DNA from: Escherichia phage BEU50
Direction: 5' to 3' (one strand)
Length of the DNA stretch: 64,000 nt
Sequence record: OM632671.1
Part shown: one piece after another, positions 40,378 through 64,000 of the stretch
Position numbering within the stretch: the first letter of the stretch is position 1
How the letters are laid out: each line of letters starts with the position of its first letter
Position numbers and translations under genes: made by a program
Notes under the pieces: model-generated
Told to the model about the DNA's origin: nothing
Database searches by the model: none
The model's input: only the letters and a program-made list of their open reading frames with translations

Positions 40378-40379
40378 CT

Positions 40380-43600: not shown

Positions 43601-43608
43601 TATAAATA
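43601..43608 (+). promoter_or_regulatory. Late promoter TATAAATA
   Basis: Exact octamer 26 nt upstream of the 43634 ATG. Confidence 0.4.
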
Positions 43609-43633
43609 GGTTTATCTAACTAAAGGGGTATAT

Positions 43634-43846: not shown

Positions 43847-43858
43847 TAGGAGGCCTTT

Positions 43859-44535: not shown

Positions 44536-44539
44536 CGTT

Positions 44540-44563
44540 AGTCTCCTTCGGGAGACTTTTTTC
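44540..44563 (+). terminator. Intrinsic terminator (AGUCUCC-UUCG-GGAGACU followed by U6)
   Basis: 7-bp stem, UUCG loop, T6. Confidence 0.7.
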
Positions 44564-44572
44564 ATTTTACCG

Positions 44573-44602
44573 GTTTACTTTCCATTTGAGCTGTGATACT
44601 AT
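44573..44602 (+). promoter_or_regulatory. Early promoter (GTTTAC, 18 nt, TACTAT)
   Basis: Immediately after the terminator, upstream of the 44631 ATG. Confidence 0.4.
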
Positions 44603-44630
44603 ACAACCATCGGATAAAGAGGAGAACATC

Positions 44631-44819
44631 ATGAAAATTGAAGCACTTAATCAAGAAGGAAATATCTACGTCATCATTAATGGTGATTTTTTCGTCGACA
44701 TGGATGAAGTTACCAGTGAAGAACTTGTAGAACTTCTTAAGAAACGTTATAATATGTGTGATGAAGTTGCAACTCACATGGCGTGTGCAATATTCTCTCT
44801 TTCATATGTGGTGGAATAA
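44631..44819 (+). CDS. Hypothetical protein (62 aa)
   Basis: ATG preceded by AAGAGGAGAA. Confidence 0.3.
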
Positions 44820-45022
44820 TGAAAACTGAAAAGCAAGCGGATAAAATTAAGGAATTAGTGGCTTCAATTCGTAAAGCAGATGAAGAGCTGATTGACTTTG
44901 CTTGGTATTCATCGGGTATTTCGAATAAAGGCATTAAAGACTTTGAAACTAAAGTTGATAATGCTTTAGAAGCGTTAGATATGTTTCTTGATGAAATTAT
45001 CGATCATAATACGAGAGTTTAA
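44819..45022 (+). CDS. Hypothetical protein (67 aa), starts MKTEKQ within a 26-nt repeat
   Basis: ATG embedded in GGTGGAATAATGAAAACTGAAAAGCA. Confidence 0.3.
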   Translation: MKTEKQADKIKELVASIRKADEELIDFAWYSSGISNKGIKDFETKVDNALEALDMFLDEIIDHNTRV

Positions 45023-45024
45023 GT

Positions 45025-45219
45025 ATGCTAACACGTGAACAGTTTGAAAAAATCATTAAATTAGCACGTGATGTTGAAATAGATTCATATCAATTAGCAG
45101 TTGAGCATTGTGAAGGATATTCATACGATGGTATAGAATCAGCTAAAAGGGATTTGGATAAATCTAAAGCTAAGTTAGTCCAATATCTTGAAATGATTAG
45201 GTGGAATAATGAAAACTGA
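45025..45219 (+). CDS. Hypothetical protein (64 aa)
   Basis: ORF following 44819..45022. Confidence 0.3.
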   Translation: MLTREQFEKIIKLARDVEIDSYQLAVEHCEGYSYDGIESAKRDLDKSKAKLVQYLEMIRWNNEN

Positions 45220-45382
45220 AAAGCAGATGTTTTTAATGAAACTAATTGAAGAATATGCTAATGCAGTTTCTGACTATGAGCGTTCTTCTCGGGAAAGAGG
45301 TACAGCTTTCGCCAAAGAAGAAATGAAAATCATGGTTGATGCTCACACAAAGCTTCAGAATTTTATTGAAAACAACATTTAA
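45209..45382 (+). CDS. Hypothetical protein (57 aa), starts MKTEKQ within the second copy of the 26-nt repeat
   Basis: ATG embedded in second copy of GGTGGAATAATGAAAACTGAAAAGCA. Confidence 0.3.
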   Translation: MKTEKQMFLMKLIEEYANAVSDYERSSRERGTAFAKEEMKIMVDAHTKLQNFIENNI

Positions 45383-45870
45383 CGGTTTACAAGTTGGCAA
45401 GGTTATGGTATAGTAATCTTGTCAACTGTCAAGGAGAAGAGAATGAAAGTTTTGTTTGTTGTGTATGTAATGATTCAATATAATTACCCAATGTTTACTT
45501 ATAATCTGGTGAACAACATTATTGATATTATTCAAAGGAGTATGTAATTGTGAGTGAGTCGAAGAGAATCAATATGAAACGATTAGTATTAGAAGTTAGT
45601 CCGCTTTTTGGTGAATTGGCTATAGAAAAAGTAAATAACATGTATCGTTTGACGCAAGAAGACGATATGCTATATTTTACGCCTAGTGAAATCATTCATT
45701 TAACCCAAATTGAATATCCTTATACTGATAAAATAGTAAGTATCAATGATGAGCACAAAATTCATTGCTCGTTTGATTGAAGTTGAAGCCCAAATTGCAG
45801 AACACACCAAATTGTTAAAAGCTCTTAATGCAAAAGCAAATGGTTTACGTAATGCTATTGAGGTATTGAA

Positions 45871-46185
45871 ATGAAAAAGCGTCTATTAGAAGACATTGCA
45901 GCTTCAAGTAATTCCAGTTTAATTAAAATTATTATGGCCGGTGAAGAAGACGATCTGGAAATGCGTGGAAAGATTTATGGTTGTGATGATTATAGCAGCC
46001 CTATTAATTGGGATTCTGTAATGGTCATGGTTGAACGTCGCGAAAGGGCTTCTAAAAACGTTCCTAATTGCCCTGAATGTGGAACTGAACAGGTGCAATT
46101 AGTCCATTGGCAGACTAATAATCTTCGTTATAAATGTCGCCATTGTAAACACCGATTTGACCGAGAAGAAAATGACAAAGCGTAA
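45871..46185 (+). CDS. Small zinc-ribbon protein (104 aa)
   Basis: CPECG ... CRHCKH. Confidence 0.35.
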
Positions 46186-46415
46186 AGAATATATGGAGAC
46201 CGCCGAAAAGGCAGTCCGTGAATTAGCAATAGCTTATTATAATGAACACGGTAAATTTCCTGATAGATACAGCGTGCTTAAATCTGCTTTAACTCGTTCA
46301 TATAAAAATATGCTATCAGAAGTAAGTGATATTATATACAAACATAAAGAACAAACGGGCCAAAGTCTTGATTACGACGAGACTTTTAAACAAGTACTAG
46401 GAATTAAGGAATAAT

Positions 46416-46679
46416 ATGTTTAAAGTATATGGTTATGATAGCAACATCCATAAATGTGTGTATTGCGATAATGCAAAACGTCTTTTGACCGTGAAGAAAC
46501 AGCCGTTTGAATTTATCAACATTATGCCGGAAAAAGGTGTTTTTGATGATGAGAAAATCGCTGAGCTTCTGACTAAACTAGGTCGTGATACTCAAATCGG
46601 CTTAACAATGCCTCAGGTATTTGCTCCTGATGGAAGTCATATTGGTGGATTTGACCAATTGCGGGAATACTTTAAATGA
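46416..46679 (+). CDS. nrdC: Glutaredoxin/thioredoxin NrdC
   Basis: 87 aa; active-site CVYC; matches T4 NrdC from memory. Confidence 0.8.
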   Translation: MFKVYGYDSNIHKCVYCDNAKRLLTVKKQPFEFINIMPEKGVFDDEKIAELLTKLGRDTQIGLTMPQVFAPDGSHIGGFDQLREYFK

Positions 46680-47168
46680 TTCTCGAAGGAACTGATTATA
46701 TCCATGATTACCGCGGAAGCGCGGTATATGTAGGTGATGAAGTTGCAGTTTACTACGGGTATGGAACTTTGATGACAGCCAAGGTTATTCAAATTAAAAA
46801 TAATCGTGCTAAACTCGAAGTTTATTATTCTAACGGCGAAAAGTCTATTTCTAAGTGGAAATACGGCGATTGTATGGTCAAACTGGGGTAAATATGATTT
46901 ACGATATTAGTGCAGCAAGAGCTCCATCAATGGTTGCTATTCCAGCTGAAGAATTAGATCGTCTTCATAAAATTGAAGAACTTCTGTGGGAAATTGAATC
47001 TGATTTGCCATCAGGATTAGAATCCTGGATTGATTATGAAGAACTTAATAAGCTTCGGGGTTAAACCCTGGTGGGCGGCTAGATGGGAAACTGTAGAGCC
47101 AGAGCCGGAAGAACCGGTTTACACTGATGAAGAAACAGTATATAATGAACCAACGATAAATGACTTAA

Positions 47169-47672
47169 TTGATATGGAGATGGGACATGATTACAGTAGA
47201 TAAGTGGTTTAGAATTAATCGTGTTGATACAGGGCTATGTAATTACTGGCCGGAACTTAGTGCAGGTACTGTCTTTAAAGTTCGTGAACTTGCAAAAGAA
47301 TGTGAAGATGATATAGAACCTGATACTGGAATTATTGAAATTGAACTTTCTGATGGAAAGATTATTAACATCTATGATAAGCCAATTACGTATTGGTGCT
47401 TGTGGAATACTGAATCCGTTGAAAATGGCGAAATTGAAGAAGTTGTAGAGAGAACTAGCCAAGATGCTCAGAAGCCTAAAGCCGCTTTTCAAGGTGAACG
47501 TATTTCATACGCATTAGCTAAATTAGCTGCACAAGAAAATAACGATGGTTATGAAGGAAATTTAATGCAAGCTGCCGCAGAGTACATTGAATGGCTTGAA
47601 ACTCAAATTTCTTTTTCTGACCAAATGATTCGGCAATATAAGCGATTGCATCAAATGTTTTACAATACTTGA
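47169..47672 (+). CDS. Hypothetical protein (about 160 aa)
   Basis: ORF; its C-terminus (MIRQYKRLHQMFYNT) is repeated downstream. Confidence 0.35.
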   Translation: MIWRWDMITVDKWFRINRVDTGLCNYWPELSAGTVFKVRELAKECEDDIEPDTGIIEIELSDGKIINIYDKPITYWCLWNTESVENGEIEEVVERTSQDAQKPKAAFQGERISYALAKLAAQENNDGYEGNLMQAAAEYIEWLETQISFSDQMIRQYKRLHQMFYNT

Positions 47673-47925
47673 AAAAACTCAAAATTCTTTTTCTGACAAG
47701 GCATTTTAATGAAAACCGAATTGGTTTATACTGAAAAGTTAAATGGCGGTAAGGTTTGGAAACTTTTTATTAAAGGACATTCTACGGACCCTCATATGAC
47801 CACTTGCGTAGGAACCTATTCTCGTCCTACTAAAAAGATGATTCGACAGTATAAACGATTGCATCGAATGTTTTACAATACTTAAATAATAAATACCCTT
47901 ATCTATTTAAGGTAAGGGTTTTATT

Positions 47926-48399
47926 ATGTTATTGACTGGCAAATTATACAAAGAAGAAAAACAAAAATTTTATAATGTACAAAACGGTAAATGCTTAATT
48001 TGCCAACGAGAACTAAATCCTGATGTTCAAGCTAATCACCTTGACCATGACCATGAATTAAATGGACCAAAAGCAGGAAAGGTACGTGGATTGCTTTGTA
48101 ATCTCTGCAATGCTGCAGAAGGTCAAATGAAGCACAAATTTAATCGTTCTGGCTTAAAGGGTCAAGGTGTTGATTATCTTGAATGGTTAGAAAATTTACT
48201 TACTTATTTAAAATCCGATTACACCCAAAATAATATTCACCCTAACTTTGTTGGAGATAAATCAAAGGAATTTTCTCGTTTAGGAAAAGAGGAAATGATG
48301 GCCGAGATGCTTCAAAGTGGATTTGAATATAATGAATCTGACACCAAAACACAATTAATAGCTTCATTTAAGAAGCAGCTTAGAAAGAGTTTAAAATGA
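47926..48399 (+). CDS. 49: Endonuclease VII (gp49) Holliday junction resolvase
   Basis: 157 aa; GKCLICQREL...HLDHDHELNGPKAGKVRGLLCNLCN matches T4 endo VII from memory. Confidence 0.9.
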   Translation: MLLTGKLYKEEKQKFYNVQNGKCLICQRELNPDVQANHLDHDHELNGPKAGKVRGLLCNLCNAAEGQMKHKFNRSGLKGQGVDYLEWLENLLTYLKSDYTQNNIHPNFVGDKSKEFSRLGKEEMMAEMLQSGFEYNESDTKTQLIASFKKQLRKSLK

Positions 48400-49217
48400 A
48401 TGTAGTATATAAACTATCATTTATTAATAGAATTAATGCTAAAACCCCACCATATTATTACATTGGAAGTAAAACCAATTGCACTTTTGATGGAACGAAT
48501 ATTATTGATAAAAATGGTAAATTTTATTATTCGTCTTCGTCATCTTCTGAATTTCAAAAAGCCTTATTGAAAGAAACGCCGAAAGTTGAAATATTATATT
48601 TTCAATTAGTCGGAGATGAACAAATAACTAGCATTGAAGCTGAATTTCAAAAGAATATAGAAAAAGATGTATGGAATAAAGAGTATTTTAATTTAGCATA
48701 TGCTGATGGCAAATTTACGACATATGGTATTTCTCCTTCTAAAGAAACTAGAGAAAAGCAATCAATAACCATGATTAAAAGAAATCGTAATAAAGGCAAA
48801 AATCATGGATTTTATGGAAAGCATCATACTAATTTAGCTAGAAAGAAAATATCAGAAGCTTCTAAAAAATACTGGAAAGAAAATCCACATCGTGGATTTT
48901 CGCATACAAAGGAAGCTAAAATTAAAATTGGAATTTCATCTTCTATCAGGCATAAAGGAAGTGGAAATCCGATGTATGGTGTAAAACCTTGGAAAACTCC
49001 GAGCGCAATTAAATCTGGTACTTGTATATTATGGTTAAAATACGCAGAAATTTTATATGATTATTTAAGTCCAGATTTTAAAAGTAAATCATCTATTTTT
49101 GCGGATTTAAACTTACCGAAATTTAGAATTGATAATTTCATCAAAAGGTTTAAAATGGGTTGGAACCCATATTTAGACGAAGAATTTCAAAAGGATAAAT
49201 TAGAATTATGTCTTTAG
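48396..49217 (+). CDS. GIY-YIG homing endonuclease with NUMOD repeats, free-standing between 49 and nrdD
   Basis: N-terminal YKLSFINRINAKTPPYYYIGSK (GIY-YIG-like), repeated G..HTxxAxxKIS motifs. Confidence 0.6.
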   Translation: MNVVYKLSFINRINAKTPPYYYIGSKTNCTFDGTNIIDKNGKFYYSSSSSSEFQKALLKETPKVEILYFQLVGDEQITSIEAEFQKNIEKDVWNKEYFNLAYADGKFTTYGISPSKETREKQSITMIKRNRNKGKNHGFYGKHHTNLARKKISEASKKYWKENPHRGFSHTKEAKIKIGISSSIRHKGSGNPMYGVKPWKTPSAIKSGTCILWLKYAEILYDYLSPDFKSKSSIFADLNLPKFRIDNFIKRFKMGWNPYLDEEFQKDKLELCL

Positions 49218-50200
49218 AAAAAGATGTTTTAAATTTTATTTCAAATAAAGATAAAGAATTAAATACAGAAAACGCCAACAAAGATTCTCGCGTCTTTCCA
49301 ACAAAAAGAGATTTAATGGCCGGTATTGTTTCTAAACATATCGCTTGTCGTATTCTTCCAAGTCATATTGTAAATGCCCATAATGTTGGATTAATTCATT
49401 TTCATGATTTAGATTACAGTATATCATTGCCTTTTACTAATTGCTGTTTAGTAGATTTAAAAGGAATGCTTGAGAACGGGTTTAAGCTCGGTAATGCACA
49501 GATTGAAACTCCTAAATCAATCGGTGTTGCTACTGCAATTATGGCACAAATTACTGCACAGGTTGCTTCTCACCAATATGGCGGAACTACATTTGCTAAT
49601 GTCGATAAAGTACTTTCTCCTTATGTTAAACGCACCTATGCAAAACATATCGAAGACGCAGAAAAATGGCAAATCGCCGATGCGTTAAATTATGCTCAAT
49701 CTAAAACAGAAAAAGACGTATACGATGCATTCCAAGCTTATGAATATGAAGTAAATACTCTCTTTAGTTCAAACGGACAGACTCCTTTTGTAACAATTAC
49801 ATTTGGTACAGGAACTGACTGGACTGAACGAATGATTCAGAAAGCAATTCTGAAAAATCGTATTAAAGGTCTTGGTCGTGATGGGATAACTCCTATTTTC
49901 CCTAAGCTTGTTATGTTTGTTGAAGAAGGTGTTAATCTTTATAAAGACGATCCGAACTATGATATTAAGCAGCTTGCTCTAGAGTGTGCAAGCAAAAGAA
50001 TGTATCCTGATATTATTTCAGCTAAGAACAATAAAGCTATCACTGGTTCATCTGTTCCTGTTTCTCCAATGGGTTGCCGTAGTTTCTTGGGCGTATGGAA
50101 AGATTCGACTGGTAATGAAATTCTTGATGGACGTAATAATCTTGGCGTTGTAACACTGAATCTTCCTCGCATCGCGTTAGATTCTTATATTGGAACACAG
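49208..50200 (+). CDS. nrdD: Anaerobic ribonucleotide reductase NrdD, N-terminal about 330 codons only (truncated at a breakpoint)
   Basis: [72 protein letters not shown] match class III RNR; the glycyl-radical C-terminal half is absent and the ORF tail runs antisense into gene 37. Confidence 0.7.
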
Positions 50201-50205
50201 TTCAA

Positions 50206-50340
50206 TCCTGAGTCATCTTTTGTGAAAATTGTTTTATCTTTTAAGTTTATAGCCAATTCACCTTCGGCTAATACTGAAGCAGCAGGACGTTGACCTGCAG
50301 TTTTGCTTCTTTTAAATTGTATTTGTTTTAAAGTAGCCAT
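50206..50340 (-). other. 37: 5' fragment of long tail fibre distal subunit gene 37 (first 45 codons only)
   Basis: Minus-strand [45 protein letters not shown] matches the gp37 N-terminus, then diverges and stops after 6 more codons. Confidence 0.6.
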
Positions 50341-50348
50341 AAGTCCTC

Positions 50349-50999
50349 TTAATAATAGCCGAAATCTTGAACAGAATCCTTAATTACGATTTGGTCAAAT
50401 CGTGGAACGTGTGAAGGTTGAGATGCAGGATTCTGTGAAAAAAGGTTTGGCGCAGTTAAATTTCCTGTCATAGTGTCTCCAGAGCGTAATACCCTAGAGT
50501 TTGCATTTGCTGTAACAGTATTTATTGCTCCATCAACATAATCTTTACGAGTAGCATCTGATGCTGCGGAAGGAGTAGATGTAACAGTTACAGATGGAGC
50601 CGTTACAGCTTTGGTAAATGTTGTCAAACCTTCTGGCGTAATAGTAATTTGTCCAGTAGTGATTTCACTACCTGCTGGTCTAAAACTAATACCGCCAGAA
50701 GAGCCACCAACTACAAGAGTATTACCAGTGCCGCCACCAGAACGAATTCGGATGGGGGTTTCATTATTACTTAATTGAAGATAACTATTTACACCATAAT
50801 TAATAGTAACTGGGCCTGTGTAAGTACCACCAGTAGATTTAGAAACGAAATCATTATCAGCTGCCTGTGGTTTATTATATTCTGAATATATTTTAAATGA
50901 TTTGTAGAGTACATCGTCACCGGCTGAATTCAACGGAAAATTTCCTTGATGCCAAATGACAGATCCACCTACAGTTGAACCTCCTTTTAAATCAGCCAT
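50349..50999 (-). CDS. 36: Long tail fibre hinge protein gp36
   Basis: 216 aa; synteny 34-35-36-37 on the minus strand. Confidence 0.8.
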
Positions 51000-51022
51000 A
51001 GTATGCCCATTTATTTTAATAT

Positions 51023-51030
51023 TATTTATA
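51023..51030 (-). promoter_or_regulatory. Late promoter TATAAATA (minus strand) for gene 36
   Basis: Plus-strand TATTTATA about 24 nt upstream of the gp36 start. Confidence 0.5.
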
Positions 51031-51039
51031 AAGAAAAAA

Positions 51040-51055
51040 GGAGCCCGGCGGCTCC
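51040..51055 (-). terminator. Minus-strand terminator hairpin (GGAGCC-GCCG-GGCUCC followed by U6) between genes 35 and 36
   Basis: Reverse complement reads GGGAGCCGCCGGGCTCCTTTTTT. Confidence 0.5.
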
Positions 51056-51061
51056 CTCAGT

Positions 51062-52177
51062 TTAAACTTCTCTAAATTCCTGTCCAAACACTTTACCAGT
51101 TTTAGACGATGCCTGTGTAGGAAGTACCATTATATCTGGAGGTGAAGCCGATTCACAGACATAATTAACGCGAATACCATTGACGCCAAATTCGGCAGGT
51201 TTTGAAATGCCGCCATTTCTTGATACTTCAGAAAAGCTTAAATTTCTCATACCGCCTTGACCCGCTTGGGCGGTTCTCTGTGTGTATATCGTAAATCCTA
51301 CTGCATTTTCAGGAACAACTACATAATCTTCTTTTAATTCCCAAGACCCAGCTTGCCCAGTAAACTCAGCTTGGGTCGAGGAAATATATCCATTTGATGC
51401 ATCATAAAAACGAATAGATATATTTGCAGTTCCAAGATCAAGTAAATCAGCATCAGCATATAGTTGTGCTTTAAGATAAAGAACATCACCAGGAATTAAA
51501 TTGTAGTCAGAAAGTTTACTTATAGCAGCTGAAGTTGGTAAACGCGCAATTTCATTATTAGTTCCACCAACCGCAGACATAAATTGCTCAACGCTTTCGT
51601 ATGTTCTTTTAGGAAATCCTGTAGCTCCGACGTCTTCTAAACTATCAAATACAACATCTAAAATAGTTTGATAATCATCTGTGCTTTTTCTATTACTTAG
51701 TTTAACATGCTCTAATGCAATAGCTCTTTTAGAAGAAGTATAAAAAGCAGCATATGACACGTCAAATCTTGACAATACTGAATCTGATGGAAAAACTGAA
51801 GTTCCTGCTCCCCTTAACCAAGATACCACTTCAGGAGGAAAATTAACCTTTCCGCTAGTTAATATAGCAACAAGTCTATTGTTTGACAAAGAATTCATGA
51901 AACTGACAAAAGTGGTAGATGTTGTATTGTTTGAAGCAGAAAAAGCATATGACTTACTATCAACTAATGCTCCCGTAGAAGGGTCAAAAACTCTTAAATG
52001 AAGACCTGCACTAAATGTTTGATTTCCAACGGGATTATCCTGAAATTTAACATATGGTCCCGCAGTAGAAAGCGGGCAAGAACCCGCTATGCTTATTTTA
52101 TATCTTACTGAATTGCTTTCCGATAAAAATGGCGTTTGGACATATCCTTGTCCAAACTCTGCCATAAATTTTTCCAT
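51062..52177 (-). CDS. 35: Long tail fibre protein gp35
   Basis: 371 aa; synteny. Confidence 0.8.
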   Translation of the reverse strand: MEKFMAEFGQGYVQTPFLSESNSVRYKISIAGSCPLSTAGPYVKFQDNPVGNQTFSAGLHLRVFDPSTGALVDSKSYAFSASNNTTSTTFVSFMNSLSNNRLVAILTSGKVNFPPEVVSWLRGAGTSVFPSDSVLSRFDVSYAAFYTSSKRAIALEHVKLSNRKSTDDYQTILDVVFDSLEDVGATGFPKRTYESVEQFMSAVGGTNNEIARLPTSAAISKLSDYNLIPGDVLYLKAQLYADADLLDLGTANISIRFYDASNGYISSTQAEFTGQAGSWELKEDYVVVPENAVGFTIYTQRTAQAGQGGMRNLSFSEVSRNGGISKPAEFGVNGIRVNYVCESASPPDIMVLPTQASSKTGKVFGQEFREV

Positions 52178-52185
52178 AATACCTC

Positions 52186-55100
52186 TTATTCAACCCATTC
52201 AAATTTAACAGTTTTATTCACTGGGTCAGGAATAATGCGAACATTACCAATTCGTAAGAAATCACGAATAGTAAGATTACCTATTATTCCATTATCAGAT
52301 GGGATTGCTCCTATATCCGAAGGTTGAGGAGGATTACCTCCATCGAATACCTGAACAAAACTTGACCAAGAGTTTTTGGTTTTCTGCCATGTACGTGTCC
52401 AGCGAGTGGTACGTGCTTCTGGGGTCGTTGGATAAGTAATCCAATCTTGGTAAAGTGAATCAAGTGTGTTACCAAACTGAGTCAATGTACCAGGAGATTT
52501 AACTTCTTCACCGCGTTCTAAATATGGAAGTCCAGTCACTTCATTAGTTTTTTCAACCATTTTAAAATAACCCGGGAACTGGTTATAAGTGGCTGAATCA
52601 TTAATATCGATTGACCAGAATCCTACAGTATCAGATGTTGGCGCACGGGTATATAAATCAGATGTTTTAACACCTTGAGAACGAATTCTCGAGTTAACAG
52701 TTAAACCGCCTGAACTTATAGTAGCACCTTTTGCAATGATTAAGCTTTCACCAATCGTTACTTGGCCAGATGCATTATTAATAGATAAAGGACGTAATCC
52801 ATTAAATCCGCCAGTTTGATCACCCGATGCAGTAAGCATAAAATTCGTTACTGACCCATCATTGCGAACAATGAAACCATAATTTCCGTTAATAGCACGG
52901 AAAGCATTTGCGCTTCGAGAAATAATTTCACCAGTTGCAGTGACTGAATTACCAAATGTTGCTACACCATTTGCATTCAATGTTCCTGAAGCATTAACAT
53001 TTATCGGTGTTACTGTACCGTTGATATTAAATGTTATATTTCCAGCTTTATTACGCTGAGAATAAAAATGACTAGACGTTTCATCACTAACTTCAAATAC
53101 GGTAGAACGTGTTGTGTCTGATTCCCCACTAAATTGATTTCCCCACACTCTGACTGTCATCGTTTGAGCCGGGTTTGTTCCAGTTTGAGGTCCTTTCTCA
53201 AAAATCAATCGAGTTGCCGTTCCAGTATTAGAAATAGTTAATGTACTATTTGCTGAAACTGATCCACCGAATGTAGCAGTACTAGATGATACAAGAGGGG
53301 CACTCAGATTCGTTTGTTGGGTTAAGGTTAGTGAACCATTAACTGTTTGTGCAATGTCCCTACGAATGAACTGGAGCGAATCTAGACCATCTAATAAATT
53401 ACTATCTACAGCTTTTGCTTTTAATGGCAAATAATTTGCTAATACGCGATTTAATTCATATGGTGATACTGCATAACCATTTTTCTCATATGATTCTAAT
53501 GGTTGTGTTGAACCTACCGTATCATTACCAACGAATGTAATTGAACCAGATGAAGTTTTAACAAACCCTCTTATCAGAGTAGTTGCTGCCCAAGTTGGTT
53601 CACTCTGCACAATCCATTTTAAATTTTTTGGAGATACAGCAGTATTTGCTGATGTTCCAGTCACAGTTTCAGACTGAGTTGCAACTTTAATAACACCTTC
53701 CTGTGCTTCAGTAGATTTAGTACCTAAAAGCTTTTTAGGAGTTATTAAAACATTATCTAATGTTCCTGCAGCAGCTTCAACTTGTGTAGCTACACGAAGT
53801 GTACCACGCTGTGTCTCATTTGCTTCAAGAATATTAAGTGTATAATGGTCCCAGAGAGTTCCTGATTCAACTAATCCAGATAGAGCAACAACAGAAGTAC
53901 GATCAGTACTATTAAATCTAGTTTTAATTTTTAATGGTGTAGAGATGCGAGTATCGTCGACGCCTGCGTCGAATTCAACTTGCGTAGCAATTTCAGCTAT
54001 ACCACTTAAACTTTCAGTTGCTCTACGGTCATTTAAAGTTTTAGGAGTGACTGCACGAGTATAGTCAGTTCCTGTGTTAACTTCACTTTGCGTAGCAATT
54101 TCAATTAAACCAATTCTTCCATCAGTTGATGTCTTTTTATGTAACGTTTCTGGCGTTACAACCGCATTTGCCCATCCTTCTTGGCTTTGTCCAGCAATTA
54201 CTTCACTTTCAACTGCTAAAATTACTGCGCCTTGTTGCGTTGGAGTAGCTTTATACTGATCCAAAGCTTTAGGTGAAACAACTAAATTATTAGTGTTTTT
54301 ATTATAAACATTCGTACCATTTAATTCACGGCTAGAAGCTGGAGTAGCTCCTGCAGTAGATACATAAGTTACAATACCAGATAATGATTCAGAACCTTGG
54401 CGAGCTTGAAGCTTTTTAGGAGTGATGATTGTAGTATCATCAGTACCTGTATTAGTTTCCTGCTGCGTAGCAATTTCAGCGACACCTCTACGAGTTTCTG
54501 TAGCAGTTCTTTCATTCAGCTTTTTAGGAGTGATGATAAGGTCATCTGCAAAAGAGAATGTGGTGTTCTGATTCACTTGAGCAGTAGTTGCTATTCTTGC
54601 AATACCTCTGCGAGTTTCTGTAGCAGTACGATTAGCTAACGTTTCTGGAGTAATTGCTAATTCTTTTTGTGGAGAATTTTCTAAATCAGCATTTGCTTGA
54701 GCTTGCGTAGCTAAAGCAATTACGCCTAATCTTGCTCTAGTAGAAGCATTTAAAGAGTCTACTCTTTCTACAGTTGGAACGTTTTGCTGTACAACCCAGC
54801 ATTTTCCATCAGAATCTTCTATATAAGCAAGTTGTAAAACTGGAACATAATTAGTTTCACCGTTAAAAACTAATTCTTGAACTGTTACCCATTCAGCTTC
54901 AGGCGGATATTCTGAACGTTTTGGGAATTGCAGCAATTGAACTGAGGAAGCAATTTTATCTTCACCTGCAGCTTTGATTTTAACTGTTTGTCCTTTTCTC
55001 ATGTAATTCATGGAAATTTTAACAGTATCACCAACAGAAATATCAGTCGGAAGCTGAAGTTCAATTGTTTGGGTTGTTCCATTATTCGCGCCAAATACCA

Positions 55101-56055
55101 TGACTTCTTCATTTGGACGAATATTAGAATTAGTTGTTATAATGCGTAAACGTGCTTTACTATCCCCGTCAAACAATCTCCACAATTTCTCATTATCATC
55201 AAACATCAAGAAACCGTCAATCGATGTACGGCCTTCAATGGAATGAGTTCCAACTTCTTGCACTGACGTTGTTTCATCATATGTCGTAACAATTGTATGA
55301 TAAAGTGGATTTAATTTATCTAAATCAACGAAATTAATGATATCTCCATGATTGGCAAATCTTGGAAGCTTAACATTAATCGGCGCGGCAGAAGTAAATC
55401 TACGTACGATAAAATCATTAGATTGTGCTTGATATGCAGTCGATGGAGTAACAATCGCAGCTTCTCTGCTATAATCAGCAATATACATTTGCCACAAACG
55501 ATTATTAAAAATGAATACCATCTGTGACTTTGGATGAGTCATTAAAACTGAACGTACCTGTTCACCTCTAAAATTGACAATACTCTGATTTGAAGAATTT
55601 ATTTTAACCTGATTTATGCCAGGTTTTCCACCGATATCTTGAATTATTACGGTTTCTCCATCAAGCGGAGAAGGTGGTAAAGTAAACTCAATGTCATTGC
55701 CAACTGATGTATCTACTGAAATTGCTTCTCCGGATTTTAATTGATATGGTCCAGATGATACGGTTGTATATACAGCATCAGTACGTAATGCTTTCCAACG
55801 AATTCTATTAAAATTTCCAGCAGGTTTTGGAATATTATCCGTTGCTGCCCAAAAACGATTATTATAAATGATTACAAAATCTTTTAAATATCCACGAGTT
55901 GGATCATATTGCTGAACTGTGTTTTCTTGAATTAAGTAATCAACGTTAACACCGTCAGTTCCTACGGTACGATCAGCTAAAGCTACGTTGATTATTTTAT
56001 CGCCACCTGCGTCCAGACCATCTTCTGCTCTGAACTTTCTTTTAATCTCGGCCAT
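52186..56055 (-). CDS. 34: Long tail fibre proximal subunit gp34
   Basis: 1289 aa, same length as T4 gp34; fibrous repeat-rich sequence. Confidence 0.9.
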   Translation of the reverse strand: MAEIKRKFRAEDGLDAGGDKIINVALADRTVGTDGVNVDYLIQENTVQQYDPTRGYLKDFVIIYNNRFWAATDNIPKPAGNFNRIRWKALRTDAVYTTVSSGPYQLKSGEAISVDTSVGNDIEFTLPPSPLDGETVIIQDIGGKPGINQVKINSSNQSIVNFRGEQVRSVLMTHPKSQMVFIFNNRLWQMYIADYSREAAIVTPSTAYQAQSNDFIVRRFTSAAPINVKLPRFANHGDIINFVDLDKLNPLYHTIVTTYDETTSVQEVGTHSIEGRTSIDGFLMFDDNEKLWRLFDGDSKARLRIITTNSNIRPNEEVMVFGANNGTTQTIELQLPTDISVGDTVKISMNYMRKGQTVKIKAAGEDKIASSVQLLQFPKRSEYPPEAEWVTVQELVFNGETNYVPVLQLAYIEDSDGKCWVVQQNVPTVERVDSLNASTRARLGVIALATQAQANADLENSPQKELAITPETLANRTATETRRGIARIATTAQVNQNTTFSFADDLIITPKKLNERTATETRRGVAEIATQQETNTGTDDTTIITPKKLQARQGSESLSGIVTYVSTAGATPASSRELNGTNVYNKNTNNLVVSPKALDQYKATPTQQGAVILAVESEVIAGQSQEGWANAVVTPETLHKKTSTDGRIGLIEIATQSEVNTGTDYTRAVTPKTLNDRRATESLSGIAEIATQVEFDAGVDDTRISTPLKIKTRFNSTDRTSVVALSGLVESGTLWDHYTLNILEANETQRGTLRVATQVEAAAGTLDNVLITPKKLLGTKSTEAQEGVIKVATQSETVTGTSANTAVSPKNLKWIVQSEPTWAATTLIRGFVKTSSGSITFVGNDTVGSTQPLESYEKNGYAVSPYELNRVLANYLPLKAKAVDSNLLDGLDSLQFIRRDIAQTVNGSLTLTQQTNLSAPLVSSSTATFGGSVSANSTLTISNTGTATRLIFEKGPQTGTNPAQTMTVRVWGNQFSGESDTTRSTVFEVSDETSSHFYSQRNKAGNITFNINGTVTPINVNASGTLNANGVATFGNSVTATGEIISRSANAFRAINGNYGFIVRNDGSVTNFMLTASGDQTGGFNGLRPLSINNASGQVTIGESLIIAKGATISSGGLTVNSRIRSQGVKTSDLYTRAPTSDTVGFWSIDINDSATYNQFPGYFKMVEKTNEVTGLPYLERGEEVKSPGTLTQFGNTLDSLYQDWITYPTTPEARTTRWTRTWQKTKNSWSSFVQVFDGGNPPQPSDIGAIPSDNGIIGNLTIRDFLRIGNVRIIPDPVNKTVKFEWVE

Positions 56056-56089
56056 TCTCCCGGGCTCCTATTGTGTTTTCAATAATAAG

Positions 56090-56097
56090 TATTTATA
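56090..56097 (-). promoter_or_regulatory. Late promoter TATAAATA (minus strand) for gene 34
   Basis: Plus-strand TATTTATA 35 nt upstream of the gp34 start. Confidence 0.45.
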
Positions 56098-56100
56098 CTT

Positions 56101-56130
56101 GTTTACTTTAAGATTTAGATAGTATATAAT
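56101..56130 (+). promoter_or_regulatory. Early promoter for rnh (GTTTAC, 16-18 nt, TATATAAT), divergent from the gene 34 late promoter
   Basis: Consensus-like elements 30 nt upstream of the rnh ATG. Confidence 0.4.
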
Positions 56131-56159
56131 AGAAATCTCACTAATTGAACGAGGTTCAT

Positions 56160-57077
56160 ATGGATTTAGAAATGATGTTGGATGAAGATTACAAAGAAGG
56201 AATTTGCTTAATTGACTTTAGTCAGATTGCGCTTTCAACTGCTCTGGTAAACTTCCCAGATAAAGAAAAAATTAATTTATCAATGGTTCGTCATTTGATA
56301 TTGAACTCAATTAAGTTTAATGTCAAAAAAGCAAAAACGCTTGGATACACTAAAATTGTGCTGTGTATTGATAACGCGAAATCTGGATACTGGCGTCGTG
56401 ATTTTGCTTATTATTATAAGAAAAACCGTGGAAAAGCACGAGAAGAATCTACTTGGGACTGGGAAGGTTATTTTGAATCCAGCCATAAAGTTATAGATGA
56501 ATTGAAAGCTTATATGCCATACATTGTTATGGATATTGATAAGTATGAAGCAGATGACCACATTGCTGTTCTTGTTAAAAAGTTCTCTTTAGAAGGACAT
56601 AAGATTTTAATCATTTCATCGGATGGTGACTTTACACAGCTTCACAAATATCCAAATGTTAAGCAATGGTCACCGATGCATAAGAAATGGGTTAAAATTA
56701 AAAGCGGTTCTGCTGAAATTGACTGTATGACTAAAATCCTTAAAGGCGACAAAAAGGATAACGTTGCTTCAGTTAAAGTACGATCTGACTTTTGGTTTAC
56801 CAAAGTTGAAGGTGAACGGACTCCTTCAATGAAAACTTCAATCGTTGAAGCTATTGCTAATGATCGTGAGCAAGCTAAGGTGCTTCTCACAGAATCTGAA
56901 TATAATCGTTATAAAGAAAATTTAGTTCTAATTGATTTTGATTATATTCCTGATAATATTGCTTCAAACATTGTGAATTACTATAATTCATATAAATTAC
57001 CACCGCGTGGCAAAATTTATTCATATTTTGTAAAAGCGGGTCTTTCTAAATTAACTAATAGCATTAATGAATTTTGA
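56160..57077 (+). CDS. rnh: RNase H / 5'-3' flap exonuclease (rnh)
   Basis: MDLEMMLDEDYKEGICLIDFSQIA... matches T4 RNase H from memory; ATG at 56160 preferred over 56145. Confidence 0.9.
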   Translation: MDLEMMLDEDYKEGICLIDFSQIALSTALVNFPDKEKINLSMVRHLILNSIKFNVKKAKTLGYTKIVLCIDNAKSGYWRRDFAYYYKKNRGKAREESTWDWEGYFESSHKVIDELKAYMPYIVMDIDKYEADDHIAVLVKKFSLEGHKILIISSDGDFTQLHKYPNVKQWSPMHKKWVKIKSGSAEIDCMTKILKGDKKDNVASVKVRSDFWFTKVEGERTPSMKTSIVEAIANDREQAKVLLTESEYNRYKENLVLIDFDYIPDNIASNIVNYYNSYKLPPRGKIYSYFVKAGLSKLTNSINEF

Positions 57078-57085
57078 GGTGAATA

Positions 57086-57355
57086 ATGGCTAAAAAAGAA
57101 ATGGTTGAATTTGATGAAGCTATCCATGGCGAAGACTTGGCTAAATTTATTAAAGAAGCATCTGATCATAAACTGAAAATTTCCGGTTATAATGAACTGA
57201 TTAAAGATATTCGAATTCGTGCTAAAGATGAACTTGGCGTTGATGGTAAGATGTTTAATCGTCTATTAGCTTTGTATCATAAAGATAACCGTGATGTGTT
57301 TGAAGCTGAAACTGAAGAGGTAGTTGAACTTTATGACACAGTTTTCTCTAAATGA
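57086..57355 (+). CDS. dsbA: DsbA-like late transcription enhancer protein
   Basis: 89 aa; T4 position between rnh and 33. Confidence 0.5.
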   Translation: MAKKEMVEFDEAIHGEDLAKFIKEASDHKLKISGYNELIKDIRIRAKDELGVDGKMFNRLLALYHKDNRDVFEAETEEVVELYDTVFSK

Positions 57356-57671
57356 CATTCGTCCGGTCGATGAGACCGGTCTTTCAGAAAAAGAACTTTC
57401 AATTAAGAAAGAAAAGGATGAAATAGCAAAGCTTCTTGATCGTCAAGAAAATGGATTTATTATTGAAAAAATGGTAGAAGAGTTTGGAATGAGTTATCTT
57501 GAAGCTACAACAGCATTCTTAGAAGAAAATTCTATTCCTGAAACTCAATTTGCTAAATTTATTCCTTCGGGTATAATTGAAAAAATTCAGTCAGAAGCTA
57601 TTGACGAAAATCTTTTACGTCCTTCTGTTGTTCGTTGTGAAAAAACTAATACATTAGATTTTCTACTATGA
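57324..57671 (+). CDS. 33: Late transcription co-activator gp33-like
   Basis: About 112 aa; position immediately upstream of the gene 59 start; start may be ATG 57333. Confidence 0.5.
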   Translation: MNFMTQFSLNDIRPVDETGLSEKELSIKKEKDEIAKLLDRQENGFIIEKMVEEFGMSYLEATTAFLEENSIPETQFAKFIPSGIIEKIQSEAIDENLLRPSVVRCEKTNTLDFLL

Positions 57672-57727
57672 TTAAACTCCGCATGCCTGCTGGTGGTGAA
57701 AGATACATTGATGGTAAATCAGTTTAG
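57668..57727 (+). other. 59: 5' fragment of helicase loader gene 59 (first 19 codons then stop)
   Basis: [19 protein letters not shown] matches the gp59 N-terminus as recalled, followed immediately by TAG TGA. Confidence 0.55.
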
Positions 57728-57810
57728 TGAGTATTTTGATAATAAAATTTCTACAGTTAAAACTTCTTCTGATTGTTACTATGATATTACTGTTTTGACG
57801 GAAAAACAAT

Positions 57811-58137
57811 ATGTTGAATTATCACCGCGCGGGCCGTCTATGCCGGGTAGTGAATAAATATAAATCCGACTTTGATGTTAATATTCACCGTGGTACATTT
57901 TGGGGAAATTACGTCGGTAAAGATGCTGGCAGCCGGGAGGCTGCCATTGAATTATTCAAAAAAGATTTTATACGTCGAATTAAATCCGGAGAAATAACTA
58001 AAGCACATTTAGAGCCTTTACGTGGAATGAGGCTAGGATGCACATGTAAACCAAAGCCGTGTCATGGTGATATAATAGCTCATATAGTTAACCGACTGTT
58101 TAAAGACGATTTTCAAGTTGAGGACTTATGCAATTAA
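57811..58137 (+). CDS. Hypothetical Cys/His-rich protein (108 aa, DUF4326-like pattern)
   Basis: RGTFWGNY ... [18 protein letters not shown] pattern; overlaps nrdA start by 10 nt. Confidence 0.35.
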
Positions 58138-60392
58138 TTAATGTTATCAAAAGTAGTGGTGTTTCTCAGAGCTTTGACCCGCAAAAAATTATTAAAGTTT
58201 TATCTTGGGCAGCTGAAGGAACATCAGTAGATCCTTATGAATTATATGAAAATATTAAATCTTATCTCCGTGATGGAATGACAACTGATGATATTCAGAC
58301 TATTGTCATTAAGGCCGCTGCGAATTCTATTTCGGTTGAAGAGCCTGATTATCAATATGTAGCTGCACGCTGTTTAATGTTCGCTCTTCGTAAGCATGTT
58401 TATGGGCAGTATGAACCACGTTCATTTATTGACCATATTTCTTACTGCGTAAATGAAGGTAAATATGACCCTGAATTATTGTCAAAATATTCAGCAGAAG
58501 AAATTACATTTTTAGAATCAAAAATTAAGCACGAGCGGGATATGGAATTTACTTATTCCGGGGCGATGCAATTAAAAGAAAAATATCTAGTCAAAGATAA
58601 AACCACCGGTCAAATTTATGAAACTCCGCAGTTTGCATTTATGACTATTGGAATGGCATTGCATCAAGATGAACCTGTTGATAGACTAAAACACGTTATC
58701 CGTTTTTATGAAGCAGTATCCACTCGACAGATTTCATTGCCAACTCCTATTATGGCTGGTTGCCGTACTCCGACTCGACAGTTTAGTTCATGTGTTGTTA
58801 TTGAGGCAGGAGATTCATTGAAGTCTATCAATAAGGCTTCTGCTTCAATTGTTGAATATATCTCTAAACGCGCTGGAATTGGTATTAACGTTGGTATGAT
58901 TCGTGCCGAAGGTTCTAAGATTGGCATGGGTGAAGTACGCCATACTGGTGTTATTCCTTTTTGGAAACATTTTCAGACTGCAGTTAAATCATGTTCACAG
59001 GGTGGAATTCGTGGCGGCGCTGCTACTGCTTATTATCCTATTTGGCATTTGGAAGTTGAAAATCTTCTCGTTTTGAAAAATAACAAAGGCGTAGAAGAAA
59101 ACCGCATTCGTCATATGGATTATGGTGTTCAACTGAATGATTTGATGATGGAACGTTTTGGAAAGAACGATTACATTACTTTGTTCAGTCCCCATGAAAT
59201 GGGTGGAGAGCTTTATTATTCTTATTTTAAAGACCAAGACCGTTTCCGTGAATTATACGAAGCAGCAGAAAAAGACCCTAATATTCGTAAAAAGCGTATT
59301 AAAGCCCGTGAACTATTTGAATTGCTCATGACTGAACGTTCAGGAACAGCAAGGATTTATGTACAGTTCATTGATAATACGAATAACTATACTCCGTTTA
59401 TTCGTGAAAAGGCACCTATTCGTCAGAGTAACTTGTGCTGTGAAATTGCTATTCCAACAAATGATGTGAATAGTCCTGATGCTGAAATTGGATTGTGTAC
59501 TCTCTCTGCATTCGTACTAGATAATTTTGACTGGCAAGACCAAGATAAAATTAATGAATTGGCAGAAGTTCAAGTTCGTGCTCTTGATAATCTTTTGGAT
59601 TACCAAGGATATCCAGTTCCTGAAGCAGAAAAAGCTAAAAAGCGTCGTAACCTTGGCGTAGGTGTTACCAACTATGCAGCTTGGCTGGCAAGTAACTTTG
59701 CTTCTTATGAAGATGCTAACGATTTAACACATGAACTATTTGAGAGATTACAGTATGGACTCATTAAAGCATCCATTAAGCTCGCCAAAGAAAAAGGACC
59801 TTGCGAATATTATTCAGACACTCGTTGGTCTCGAGGCGAATTACCTATCGACTGGTACAATAAAAAGATTGACCAAATCGCAGCTCCAAAATACGTTTGT
59901 GACTGGTCGTCGCTGCGGGAAGACCTCAAGCTCTTTGGCATCCGTAATAGCACATTATCAGCACTTATGCCATGTGAGTCATCTTCCCAAGTTTCTAACA
60001 GTACAAACGGTATCGAGCCTCCACGTGGACCGGTAAGTGTTAAAGAATCAAAAGAGGGTTCCTTTAATCAAGTCGTGCCCAATATTGAGCATAACATAGA
60101 CCTCTATGATTATACGTGGAAATTAGCTAAGAAAGGTAATAAACCTTATCTTACGCAGGTAGCTATTATGCTGAAATGGGTATGTCAATCAGCTTCAGCG
60201 AATACATACTATGACCCGCAAATTTTTCCAAAAGGAAAGGTTCCAATGTCAATAATGATTGATGACATGCTATATGGATGGTATTATGGCATTAAAAATT
60301 TCTATTATCATAATACCCGTGATGGTTCTGGTACTGATGATTATGAAATAGAAACTCCAAAAGCTGAAGATTGTTCATCCTGTAAATTATGA
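58128..60392 (+). CDS. nrdA: Aerobic ribonucleotide reductase large subunit NrdA
   Basis: 754 aa; class Ia active-site motifs (SNLCCEIA, catalytic Cys/Glu region, C-terminal CxxC tail ...CSSCKL). Confidence 0.9.
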   Translation: MQLINVIKSSGVSQSFDPQKIIKVLSWAAEGTSVDPYELYENIKSYLRDGMTTDDIQTIVIKAAANSISVEEPDYQYVAARCLMFALRKHVYGQYEPRSFIDHISYCVNEGKYDPELLSKYSAEEITFLESKIKHERDMEFTYSGAMQLKEKYLVKDKTTGQIYETPQFAFMTIGMALHQDEPVDRLKHVIRFYEAVSTRQISLPTPIMAGCRTPTRQFSSCVVIEAGDSLKSINKASASIVEYISKRAGIGINVGMIRAEGSKIGMGEVRHTGVIPFWKHFQTAVKSCSQGGIRGGAATAYYPIWHLEVENLLVLKNNKGVEENRIRHMDYGVQLNDLMMERFGKNDYITLFSPHEMGGELYYSYFKDQDRFRELYEAAEKDPNIRKKRIKARELFELLMTERSGTARIYVQFIDNTNNYTPFIREKAPIRQSNLCCEIAIPTNDVNSPDAEIGLCTLSAFVLDNFDWQDQDKINELAEVQVRALDNLLDYQGYPVPEAEKAKKRRNLGVGVTNYAAWLASNFASYEDANDLTHELFERLQYGLIKASIKLAKEKGPCEYYSDTRWSRGELPIDWYNKKIDQIAAPKYVCDWSSLREDLKLFGIRNSTLSALMPCESSSQVSNSTNGIEPPRGPVSVKESKEGSFNQVVPNIEHNIDLYDYTWKLAKKGNKPYLTQVAIMLKWVCQSASANTYYDPQIFPKGKVPMSIMIDDMLYGWYYGIKNFYYHNTRDGSGTDDYEIETPKAEDCSSCKL

Positions 60393-60443
60393 TATAATTT
60401 GACTCATGGACGAGTCACTATCTATTAACTAAGTGGAAAATTT

Positions 60444-61100
60444 ATGAGCACAGTTTTTAATACAAACCCAGTTGATGTTTTAAAAGAACCTATGTTTTTT
60501 GGTTCAGGTCTTGGTATTGCGCGTTATGATATTCAACGCCATAAAGTTTTTGAAGATTTGACCGAAAAGCAATTGTCATTTTTCTGGCGTCCTGAAGAAG
60601 TAAACTTAATGATGGATGCTGCACAGTTTAATAAGCTTCCTCAGTATCAGCAAAATATTTTTACTAATAACCTGAAGTATCAATCACTTTTGGATAGCAT
60701 TCAGGGTCGTGCGCCATCTGCTGTACTTATGTCATTAATTTCAGACCCGAGTCTTGATACATGGGTTGCTACATGGACTTTTAGTGAAACTATTCACAGC
60801 CGTTCATATACACATATCATGCGAAATCTTTATACTGATCCATCGAAGGTATTTGATGAGATTGTATTAGATGAAGCTATTATGAAACGTGCTGAATCTA
60901 TCGGTCGCTATTATGATGATGTTCTGATTAAAACCCGTGAATGGGAAAATGCTAAAGAATTTGTAGAACTAGCTAAAGAATCTCCTGATGCTGTCTTTCG
61001 TTTAAACCGAGCTATTAAACAAGAAGCCGAAGCTAAACGTGCTTTAATGAAATCTCTTTACCTCTGTTTGCACGTTATTAATGCCTTAGAAGCATTCGTT
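60444..61100 (+). CDS. nrdB: Ribonucleotide reductase small subunit NrdB, exon 1 (3' boundary approximate)
   Basis: R2 di-iron motifs (WATWTFSETIHSRSY, LYLCLHVINALEA); reading frame then enters the intron and stops at 61133. Confidence 0.75.
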
Positions 61101-61228
61101 TTTATGTATCTTTTGCGTAAAATGCGCCTTTAAACGGTAACGTTTATCGAAAACTCCTTTAATTGCTGGAAAGTCCTTTATAGGAAAACTAGCAGCCAAG
61201 GTTTTGCTTGCACCTTTAATTAGTATAA

Positions 61229-61236
61229 TATAAATA
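61229..61236 (+). promoter_or_regulatory. Late promoter TATAAATA inside the intron, upstream of the endonuclease ORF
   Basis: Exact octamer 27 nt upstream of the ORF start. Confidence 0.45.
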
Positions 61237-61263
61237 TGGTTATACTTTTAAGAGGATGCACAA

Positions 61264-62073
61264 TTGAACTATAGAAAAATTTGGATAGATGCTAACGGAC
61301 CTATACCTAAAGATTCTGATGGAAGAACATACGAAATCCATCATAAAGACGGTAACCGTGAAAATAATGATTTAGATAATTTGATGTGCCTTTCTATACA
61401 GGAACATTATGATATACATTTAGCTCAAAAAGATTACCAGGCTTGTCATGCTATAAAGCTTAGAATGAAATATTCTCCTGAAGAAATTTCTGAATTAGCT
61501 TCTAAAGCCGCAAAATCTAGAGAAATCCAGATTTTTAATATCCCTGAAGTACGAGCTAAAAATATTGCCTCTATTAAATCTAAGATAGAAAATGGTACAT
61601 TTCATCTTTTAGATGGTGAAATACAGCGTAAATCTAATTTAAATAGAGTTGCATTAGGTATACATAATTTTCAACAAGCTGAGCATATTGCAAAAGTTAA
61701 AGAACGCAATATTGCAGCTATAAAAGAAGGTACTCATGTATTTTGCGGTGGTAAAATGCAGTCAGAAACTCAATCAAAACGGGTAAATGACGGTTCACAT
61801 CATTTCTTATCAGAAGACCATAAGAAAAGAACATCAGCAAAAACATTAGAAATGGTTAAGAACGGGACCCATCCTGCACAAAAAGAAATCACATGTGATT
61901 TTTGTGGTCACATTGGTAAAGGTCCTGGATTTTATCTAAAACATAATGACAGATGTAAATTAAATCCAAATAGAATTCAATTGAATTGTCCATATTGTGA
62001 TAAGAAAGATTTATCACCATCAACATATAAACGATGGCACGGCGACAATTGCAAAACAAGGTTCAACGACTAG
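61264..62073 (+). CDS. Intron-encoded HNH homing endonuclease (I-TevIII-like), TTG start
   Basis: HNH motif YEIHHKDGNRENNDLDNLMCLSIQEHYDIH; C-terminal zinc ribbons CDFCGH ... CPYCDK ... WHGDNC; no in-frame ATG, start is TTG after RBS AAGAGGA. Confidence 0.75.
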   Translation: MNYRKIWIDANGPIPKDSDGRTYEIHHKDGNRENNDLDNLMCLSIQEHYDIHLAQKDYQACHAIKLRMKYSPEEISELASKAAKSREIQIFNIPEVRAKNIASIKSKIENGTFHLLDGEIQRKSNLNRVALGIHNFQQAEHIAKVKERNIAAIKEGTHVFCGGKMQSETQSKRVNDGSHHFLSEDHKKRTSAKTLEMVKNGTHPAQKEITCDFCGHIGKGPGFYLKHNDRCKLNPNRIQLNCPYCDKKDLSPSTYKRWHGDNCKTRFND

Positions 62074-62192
62074 TCTTCGGACGTAGGGTCAAGCGACTCG
62101 AAATGGGGAGAATCCCTCCGGGATTGTGATATAGTCTGGACTGCATGGTAACATGCAGCAGTTCATAAGAGAACGGGTTGAGAATTAGCGAG

Positions 62193-62711
62193 CTCAATCG
62201 AACATACGGTACCTTTAACTTCCATAAAAATATGGAAATTATGGAAGGTAATGCAAAGATTATGAAGTTCATTGCTCGTGACGAACAACTCCACCTCAAG
62301 GGTACTCAGTACATTATCCGTCAACTTCAATCTGGTACTGATGGTGATGAGTGGGTTCAAATTGCTAAAGAATGTGAACAAGAAGCAGTTGACATTTTTA
62401 TGGAAGTAAATAGTCAAGAGAAGGAATGGGCTGCACACCTCTTTAAAGACGGTACATGTCCAGGTATCAATACGCAGAGTATGTGTGCTTTTGTTGATTA
62501 CTTGACTGTGTCTCGTATGAAACAGTGTGGTTTGCCATGCCCAATCACTGATGCTCCGACCAAGCATCCGTATCCTTGGATTCGTGAATATCTGAACTCT
62601 GATTTAGTTCAAGCCGCTCCTCAGGAAGTTGAAATCAGTTCTTATCTTGTCGCACAAATTGATAATGATGTAGACCAAAATGTAATCAATTCATACAAAA
62701 AATATTTCTAA
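62193..62711 (+). CDS. nrdB: NrdB exon 2 (5' boundary approximate)
   Basis: FNFHKNMEIMEGNAKIMKFIARDEQLHL continues the R2 sequence (compare E. coli [28 protein letters not shown]). Confidence 0.75.
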   Translation, partial: LNRTYGTFNFHKNMEIMEGNAKIMKFIARDEQLHLKGTQYIIRQLQSGTDGDEWVQIAKECEQEAVDIFMEVNSQEKEWAAHLFKDGTCPGINTQSMCAFVDYLTVSRMKQCGLPCPITDAPTKHPYPWIREYLNSDLVQAAPQEVEISSYLVAQIDNDVDQNVINSYKKYF

Positions 62712-62715
62712 GGAC

Positions 62716-62737
62716 GGGACTTCGGTCCCACTTTATT
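62716..62737 (+). terminator. Stem-loop GGGAC-UUCG-GUCCC after nrdB
   Basis: Same hairpin core as at 5001..5018; followed by ACUUUAUU. Confidence 0.4.
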
Positions 62738-63148
62738 ATGAAAGATATTGCCGCCGAATATTCCTTTATTAAATATACAGAATTGGAGCTATTAGAAGAT
62801 GCAACAATTAAAACAGTTGATGTCCCTAATAAGAAAAATGTCATATACGCTATTGCTATAGATGACGAACTTGTGTATATTGGTAAAACCAAGAATTTAA
62901 AGAAACGCATTAACTATTATCGAACAGCCATAAATCGAAAAGACCAGACTTCAGATTCAAGAAAATCACTTATGATTTTGGATGCCTTAATGCAAGGCAA
63001 AAAGGTTGAATTCTGGGCCCGCCAATGTTTTGACCTTTCAGTCACCAACGAACTTGGTTCAATGACCATCGCAACAATGGACCTTGAAGAACCACTTTTT
63101 ATCAAAAAGTTCAACCCGCCTTGGAATATCCAACATAAGAAAAAGTAG
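62738..63148 (+). CDS. denA: Endonuclease II (DenA), GIY-YIG family
   Basis: 136 aa; VIYAIAIDDELVYIGKTKNLKKRINYY; T4 position between nrdB and rnlA. Confidence 0.65.
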   Translation: MKDIAAEYSFIKYTELELLEDATIKTVDVPNKKNVIYAIAIDDELVYIGKTKNLKKRINYYRTAINRKDQTSDSRKSLMILDALMQGKKVEFWARQCFDLSVTNELGSMTIATMDLEEPLFIKKFNPPWNIQHKKK

Positions 63149-63177
63149 TTTACATACCACAAGGATTGTGGTACAAT
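63148..63177 (+). promoter_or_regulatory. Early promoter (GTTTACA, 18 nt, TACAAT) for rnlA
   Basis: Upstream of the rnlA ATG. Confidence 0.4.
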
Positions 63178-63195
63178 TTAAAAAAAACTAACTGA

Positions 63196-64000
<805 letters not shown>

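Follow-up and report, generated by a model that had tools for sequence, protein, structure and literature searches.

The window, i.e., the whole 64-kb stretch of DNA analysed here, passes at position 57726/57727 directly from the beginning of gene 59 into the interior of nrdA.2. Judged from the sequence, this point very probably represents a splice in a composite sequence rather than a deletion carried by a replicating phage. The reading shifts from a deletion in a phage to a composite because the joint has at least three blunt equivalents elsewhere in a window that derives from two genera. The feature is most probably not biological, and no function is expected of the joint.

Upstream of the joint, the window carries gene 34 (52186-56055, minus strand), rnh (56145-57077), dsbA (57086-57355) and an intact gene 33 for the late-transcription coactivator (57333-57671, plus strand; Pfam PF16805, E = 5.3e-27). 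The latter is colinear with the annotated gene 33 of RB3, and its stop codon overlaps the ATG of gene 59 at 57668. The plus strand of the window corresponds to the early-gene direction of T-even phages. Only 19 codons of gene 59 are left (57668-57724), all of which were identical to Tequatrovirus gp59 in tblastn (19/19). Together with two further nucleotides they form a stub (57668-57727, plus strand) that is closed by a TAG at 57725-57727 spanning the joint and followed by a TGA and more in-frame stops. On the right side, the sequence enters nrdA.2 (DUF5496) 133 nt into the gene and retains residues 46-87 of 87 and the stop codon without the native start codon (57727-57857, plus strand), as identified by tblastn and by Pfam PF17600 (profile positions 45-87 of 87). 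Eleven independent reference loci, i.e., RB3, vB_ECOLIGBLB0003 and BCPShso_001 together with NCBI, ENA and Logan contigs, were aligned to locate the breakpoint. In 11/11, the left match ends at 57726 and the right match begins at 57727. When the two parental contexts were compared side by side (CAGTTTA/TAAATT versus ATGACTC/GTGAGT), they had 0 bases in common at the joint, which is accordingly blunt. A previous reading made from the sequence alone (the sequence-only reading) had placed a breakpoint 19 codons into gene 59 with stop codons directly behind it, and both claims agree with the tblastn match, the ends of the reference matches and the stops seen in the sequence. Around the joint, no RNA element scored above the Rfam gathering score in 56000-64000 and no terminator-like site was detected in 57000-58400, while promoter-like matches in the latter range were just modestly above shuffle expectation.

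The nrdA.2 remnant is followed by intact copies of nrdA.1 (57811-58137, plus strand; 108 aa) and nrdA (58128-60392, plus strand; Pfam ATP-cone, Ribonuc_red_lgN and Ribonuc_red_lgC). The ORF in front of nrdA had been regarded as unrelated and Cys/His-rich by the sequence-only reading. This assignment has to be corrected, as the protein belongs to DUF4326 (PF14216, E = 5.5e-22; 78.7 bits at a gathering cut-off of 25), adjoins nrdA upstream and thus represents nrdA.1, the native neighbor of nrdA. An identical nrdA.1 protein occurs on 22 public contigs, and the canonical order 33-59-32-...-td-nrdA.2-nrdA.1-nrdA was present in all of the contigs shown (8/8). Further downstream, nrdA and nrdB are separated by a spacer of 52 nt (60392-60444) without mobE, as is also the case in the Tequatroviruses L005, L006, L007 and L013. 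In RB3 and others, mobE lies between the two genes, which is an ordinary mobile-element polymorphism.

The canonical Tequatrovirus locus reads 33-59-(segG)-32-frd.3-frd.1-frd-td(I-TevI)-nrdA.2-nrdA.1-nrdA. The flanks of the window are 97-100% identical to it, with nrdA.1 and nrdA intact, but the central 5.0-6.9 kb are lacking. In the reference loci, the absent interval comprises 4,964-6,901 bp (6,017 bp in the closest relative, L006) and covers the rest of gene 59, segG where present, 32, frd.3, frd.2, frd.1, frd, td with or without I-TevI, and the 5' part of nrdA.2. Whether mobE, segG and the td intron ORF are present differs naturally from one of these loci to the next. When the missing interval was compared to the whole window by blastn and tblastn, the only matches were the two remnants and a distant SegG-like homing endonuclease at 48396-49217. 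Accordingly, no gp32, frd or td sequence and no gp59 sequence beyond the 19-codon stub is found elsewhere in the 64 kb. The references and contigs also bear out that 59, 32, frd and td are located between 33 and nrdA in T4-like genomes, and the searches of the window confirm that 32, frd and td are missing before nrdA, both as stated earlier. The SegG-like ORF at 48396-49217 encodes 273 aa, is situated between gene 49 and nrdD, and is 39% identical to SegG over 128 residues; its protein has an identical copy at the same position in natural contigs.

We also determined whether this arrangement occurs elsewhere. The junction region was compared with 50,697 phage records, using both a near and a distant search mode. 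Of these records, 682 matched the 200 nt surrounding the joint and none spanned the 57726/57727 adjacency, and in all near-identical phage records (515/515) the two flanks lie apart. Likewise, a 28-mer across the joint had no exact match in IMG/VR, GTDB genomes (one per species) or JGI metagenomes, and 28-mers across the other three joints gave none in IMG/VR. As a control, the 28-mer of an intact gene 59 over the same position was present in four IMG/VR contigs. In one of these (L022, IMGVR_UViG_3300045988_128797, locus 17-44), the stored locus begins 16 nt before the control pattern; if this start is the contig's own end, its assembly would have stopped close to the 5' end of this gene. The E. 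coli genomes and the plasmid collection did not give any match to the junction region. Three fusion ORFs created by the joints, searched as exact proteins, were absent from 153 billion recorded gene positions, and no record was found for the exact gp35 protein. Native genomes with gene 33 adjacent to the nrdA side, named by the sequence-only reading as the finding that would speak against a breakpoint, therefore did not emerge from the phage records, IMG/VR, GTDB or JGI. These absences are partly uninformative because the exact source of the window lies outside the searched collections: the best matches to the window reach 99-99.6%, but never 100%, and the window's own source record is in none of the collections. 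The absence elsewhere means that the arrangement is not common to relatives; it says nothing about the source record being wrong.

The same data bear on the possibility of a natural gene-order variant, in which full-length 59, 32, frd and td would reside elsewhere in the genome and gene 33 would natively adjoin nrdA.1 and nrdA. As only 64 kb are visible, these genes could be located outside the window. Relocation, however, would not leave a gene 59 stub of 58 nt and a headless nrdA.2, and neither the separated flanks in all of the near-identical records nor the canonical order in every contig shown with the identical nrdA.1 fits this scenario. In addition, T4-like core genes are highly syntenic, with gp59 found in 22/26 genomes (PMC3037559). 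We regard such a variant as barely credible.

The joint in gene 59 is accompanied by three others. All four blunt joints (39346/39347, 45766/45767, 50206/50207 and 57726/57727) lie within 18.4 kb, are positioned exactly to within 1 nt and have 0-1 nt of common sequence. The genes cut are rIIA, the glycyl-radical cofactor gene, a mobD-region ORF, an nrdC.10-like ORF, nrdD, gene 37, gene 59 and nrdA.2. At 39346/39347, a Mosigvirus rIIA breaks off 178 nt short of its stop codon and continues into a Tequatrovirus gene for an autonomous glycyl-radical cofactor without its first 90 nt. Due to this junction, 30 codons are missing from the start of the cofactor remnant (39347-39619; GrcA/YfiD-like, Pfam Gly_radical). 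The joint at 45766/45767 falls into the mobD/nrdC.x region, where 8,745 bp of SHFML-26 are skipped and an ORF is truncated at either side; among the 509 records matching the 2-kb stretch around it, no single colinear match covered 80% or more. At 50206/50207, nrdD is cut after 999 nt and followed by the first 134 nt of gene 37 (minus strand), and then by 36, 35 and 34. The contigs with the identical homing-endonuclease protein of 48396-49217 all run on into full-length nrdD and nrdG.

All four joint coordinates equal 6 modulo 20, and the lengths of the blocks between them (6420, 4440 and 7520) have a greatest common divisor of 20. In a simulation, three random lengths had a greatest common divisor of at least 20 with a chance probability of about 1e-3. 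We know of no biological process with a modulo-20 periodicity. This phase suggests a computational step, although it was noticed post hoc and carries modest weight. The loss of FASTA lines of standard width was considered as a cause of the common divisor and rejected, as 7520 nt, the length of one block, cannot be divided evenly by 60, 70 or 80.

The block lengths of 4.4, 6.4 and 7.5 kb are also typical amplicon sizes, and all blocks have the same orientation, as might be expected for an engineered or cloned construct built from PCR-sized T-even fragments (4.4-7.5 kb). Such a construct would nevertheless be very unlikely: no vector, linker, restriction-site or overlap sequence is present at any joint, genes are cut mid-codon without design logic, and the plasmid collection is without a match.

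The parentage of the blocks provides further evidence. Block A (1-39346), from gene 43 to the truncated rIIA, is one colinear block that is 98-99% identical to the Mosigvirus a20. Blocks B1 (39347-45766; glycyl-radical-cofactor gene through tk and rI) and B2 (45767-50206; nrdC, pin, 49, homing endonuclease and nrdD) are of Tequatrovirus origin. Block C (50207-57726) reaches just 75% identity with a20 but 99.6% with a Tequatrovirus scaffold, and block D (57727 onward) is Tequatrovirus at its left. Block C and the left part of D are 99.56% and 99.50% identical, respectively, to one and the same scaffold (L006) in the same orientation and colinearly. Because both are about 99.5% identical to L006, the joint at 57726/57727 is by itself a colinear skip within one Tequatrovirus type. 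L006 (ENA ERZ28650664, VATT16-1 scaffold_2) is a metagenome scaffold of 215,140 bp and, as this exceeds a T4-type genome of about 170 kb, may itself be redundant or chimeric. Between its sequences resembling block C and the left of block D, L006 contains the canonical 6,017 bp; this and the lack of the essential gene 32 anywhere in the window support a composite. Moreover, rIIA and the grcA-like gene, as well as nrdD and gene 37, are tens of kb apart in a20, Shinka and BCPShso_001. Deletions alone cannot turn the conserved T-even map into the order A-B1-B2-C-D. The window hence displays what is looked for in a composite: several unrelated joints, blocks from different lineages, and an order at odds with the conserved map. 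In summary, the break, the normal gene order and the gene loss had been recognized correctly by the sequence-only reading, whereas the identity of the ORF was mistaken, and the nrdA.2 remnant before it, the other three joints and the mixture of two genera were missed.

Within block D, L006-like Tequatrovirus sequence (about 100%) gives way to sequence like that of the Mosigvirus a20 (100%) somewhere in 60994-61649 of nrdB (60444-62711), as located by a 200-nt identity profile and diagnostic positions. The switch falls into the nrdB intron with I-TevIII, in sequence common to both parents. It resembles the outcome of homologous recombination or a chimera from graph assembly and differs in kind from the blunt joints. 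The intron harbors a full-length HNH homing endonuclease of 269 aa (61264-62073), which is I-TevIII-like according to the RB3 annotation; for a group I intron, no Rfam match reached the gathering score in 56000-64000. In the Mosigvirus block, 35131-35246 has about 76% DNA identity to part of the RB3 mobE region and is probably part of another mob-type homing endonuclease gene.

A true deletion of about 6 kb from gene 59 into the 5' part of nrdA.2 would imply a defective Tequatrovirus in a mixed population, in which a helper T-even phage supplies gp32 and gp59. What counts against a composite here is that the flanks of the joint are of the same Tequatrovirus type, run colinearly in one orientation and match a single natural scaffold at about 99.5% identity, just as in a true deletion. 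Two T-even genera occur in the window, so co-infection is conceivable. T4 packages its DNA by headful, so that deleted genomes could still be packaged. However, the microhomology at the joint is 0 nt, while spontaneous T4 deletions typically form at short direct repeats. A microhomology-mediated deletion is ruled out by these 0 nt. A true deletion also leaves unaccounted for the three further blunt joins nearby, some of them non-colinear, which break rIIA, nrdD and gene 37, and a modulo-20 phase that is common to the joints without a biological explanation. Furthermore, the joint was never found in the phage records, IMG/VR, GTDB or JGI, and the essential gene 32 would be lost. Taken together, a true deletion appears quite unlikely. 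The broader version, a real, multiply rearranged and replication-defective T-even genome of the 'cheater' or defective-interfering type that lacks 32, 59, most of 37 and other genes and persists among mixed Mosigvirus and Tequatrovirus phages thanks to headful packaging and the functions of a helper, is in our view highly improbable.

In the favored reading of a composite sequence, at least five blocks (A, B1, B2, C and D) would have been joined end to end at arbitrary points within genes, in an order found in no T-even genome. Contigs or fragments from a sample containing both Mosigvirus and Tequatrovirus may have been concatenated or mis-scaffolded with loss of the gap markers; alternatively, the sequence may have been spliced deliberately in silico. 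The exact joints, their lack of homology, the mixed origin, the non-synteny and the absence elsewhere are observed, and which process made the joints, be it misassembly, concatenation or in-silico splicing, is inferred. Ordinary short-read de Bruijn misassembly fits the blunt joints poorly because these are without a shared k-mer; the chimeras made by de Bruijn-graph assemblers normally arise where sequence is shared and not at blunt points. As written, the sequence would yield a gp59 stub of 19 residues and a headless fragment of nrdA.2, and gp32 would be lacking. Both nrdA.1 and nrdA are intact and would be promoter-distal and read from upstream transcription.

The main value of these findings lies in quality control: the last 25 kb of the window (39-64 kb) should not be treated as the genome of a native phage, and findings that are based on adjacency in this part are therefore suspect. 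This concerns the fusion ORFs at rIIA, nrdD, gene 37 and gene 59, the 'missing' essential genes, and the unusual neighbors. If the joints were physically real, the sequence would represent a heavily deleted, helper-dependent T-even genome, which would be unusual; nothing in our analysis favors this.

Several known systems can be compared with the window. T4 laboratory deletion mutants reportedly include rII deletions such as r1589 and multi-gene deletions of non-essential regions. Like the window, they have lost a contiguous run of genes, possess a novel joint and otherwise keep the flanking order. Those viable deletions that are known affect non-essential genes, whereas the interval absent from the window includes gene 32, the joint is without a repeat, and non-colinear joins occur besides. 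Homing-endonuclease mosaicism (SegG near gene 32, I-TevI in td, MobE between nrdA and nrdB) resembles the window in that the missing interval holds such elements in relatives. Homing, however, proceeds by gene conversion with co-conversion of the flanks and is precise at element boundaries, while the end points in the window lie elsewhere. A homing-endonuclease event is ruled out, as neither nt 58 of gene 59 nor nt 134 of nrdA.2 coincides with an element boundary. Chimeric or misjoined contigs from mixed related phages likewise contain two T-even lineages in one sequence, genes truncated at the joints and missing essential genes. Graph-based chimeras in particular resemble the switch at 60994-61649, which lies in sequence common to both parents. 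The four joints of the window differ from such contigs in being blunt, in having no k-mer in common and in their modulo-20 phase, and the blunt joints together with this phase speak for concatenation or splicing and not for a mis-traversed graph.
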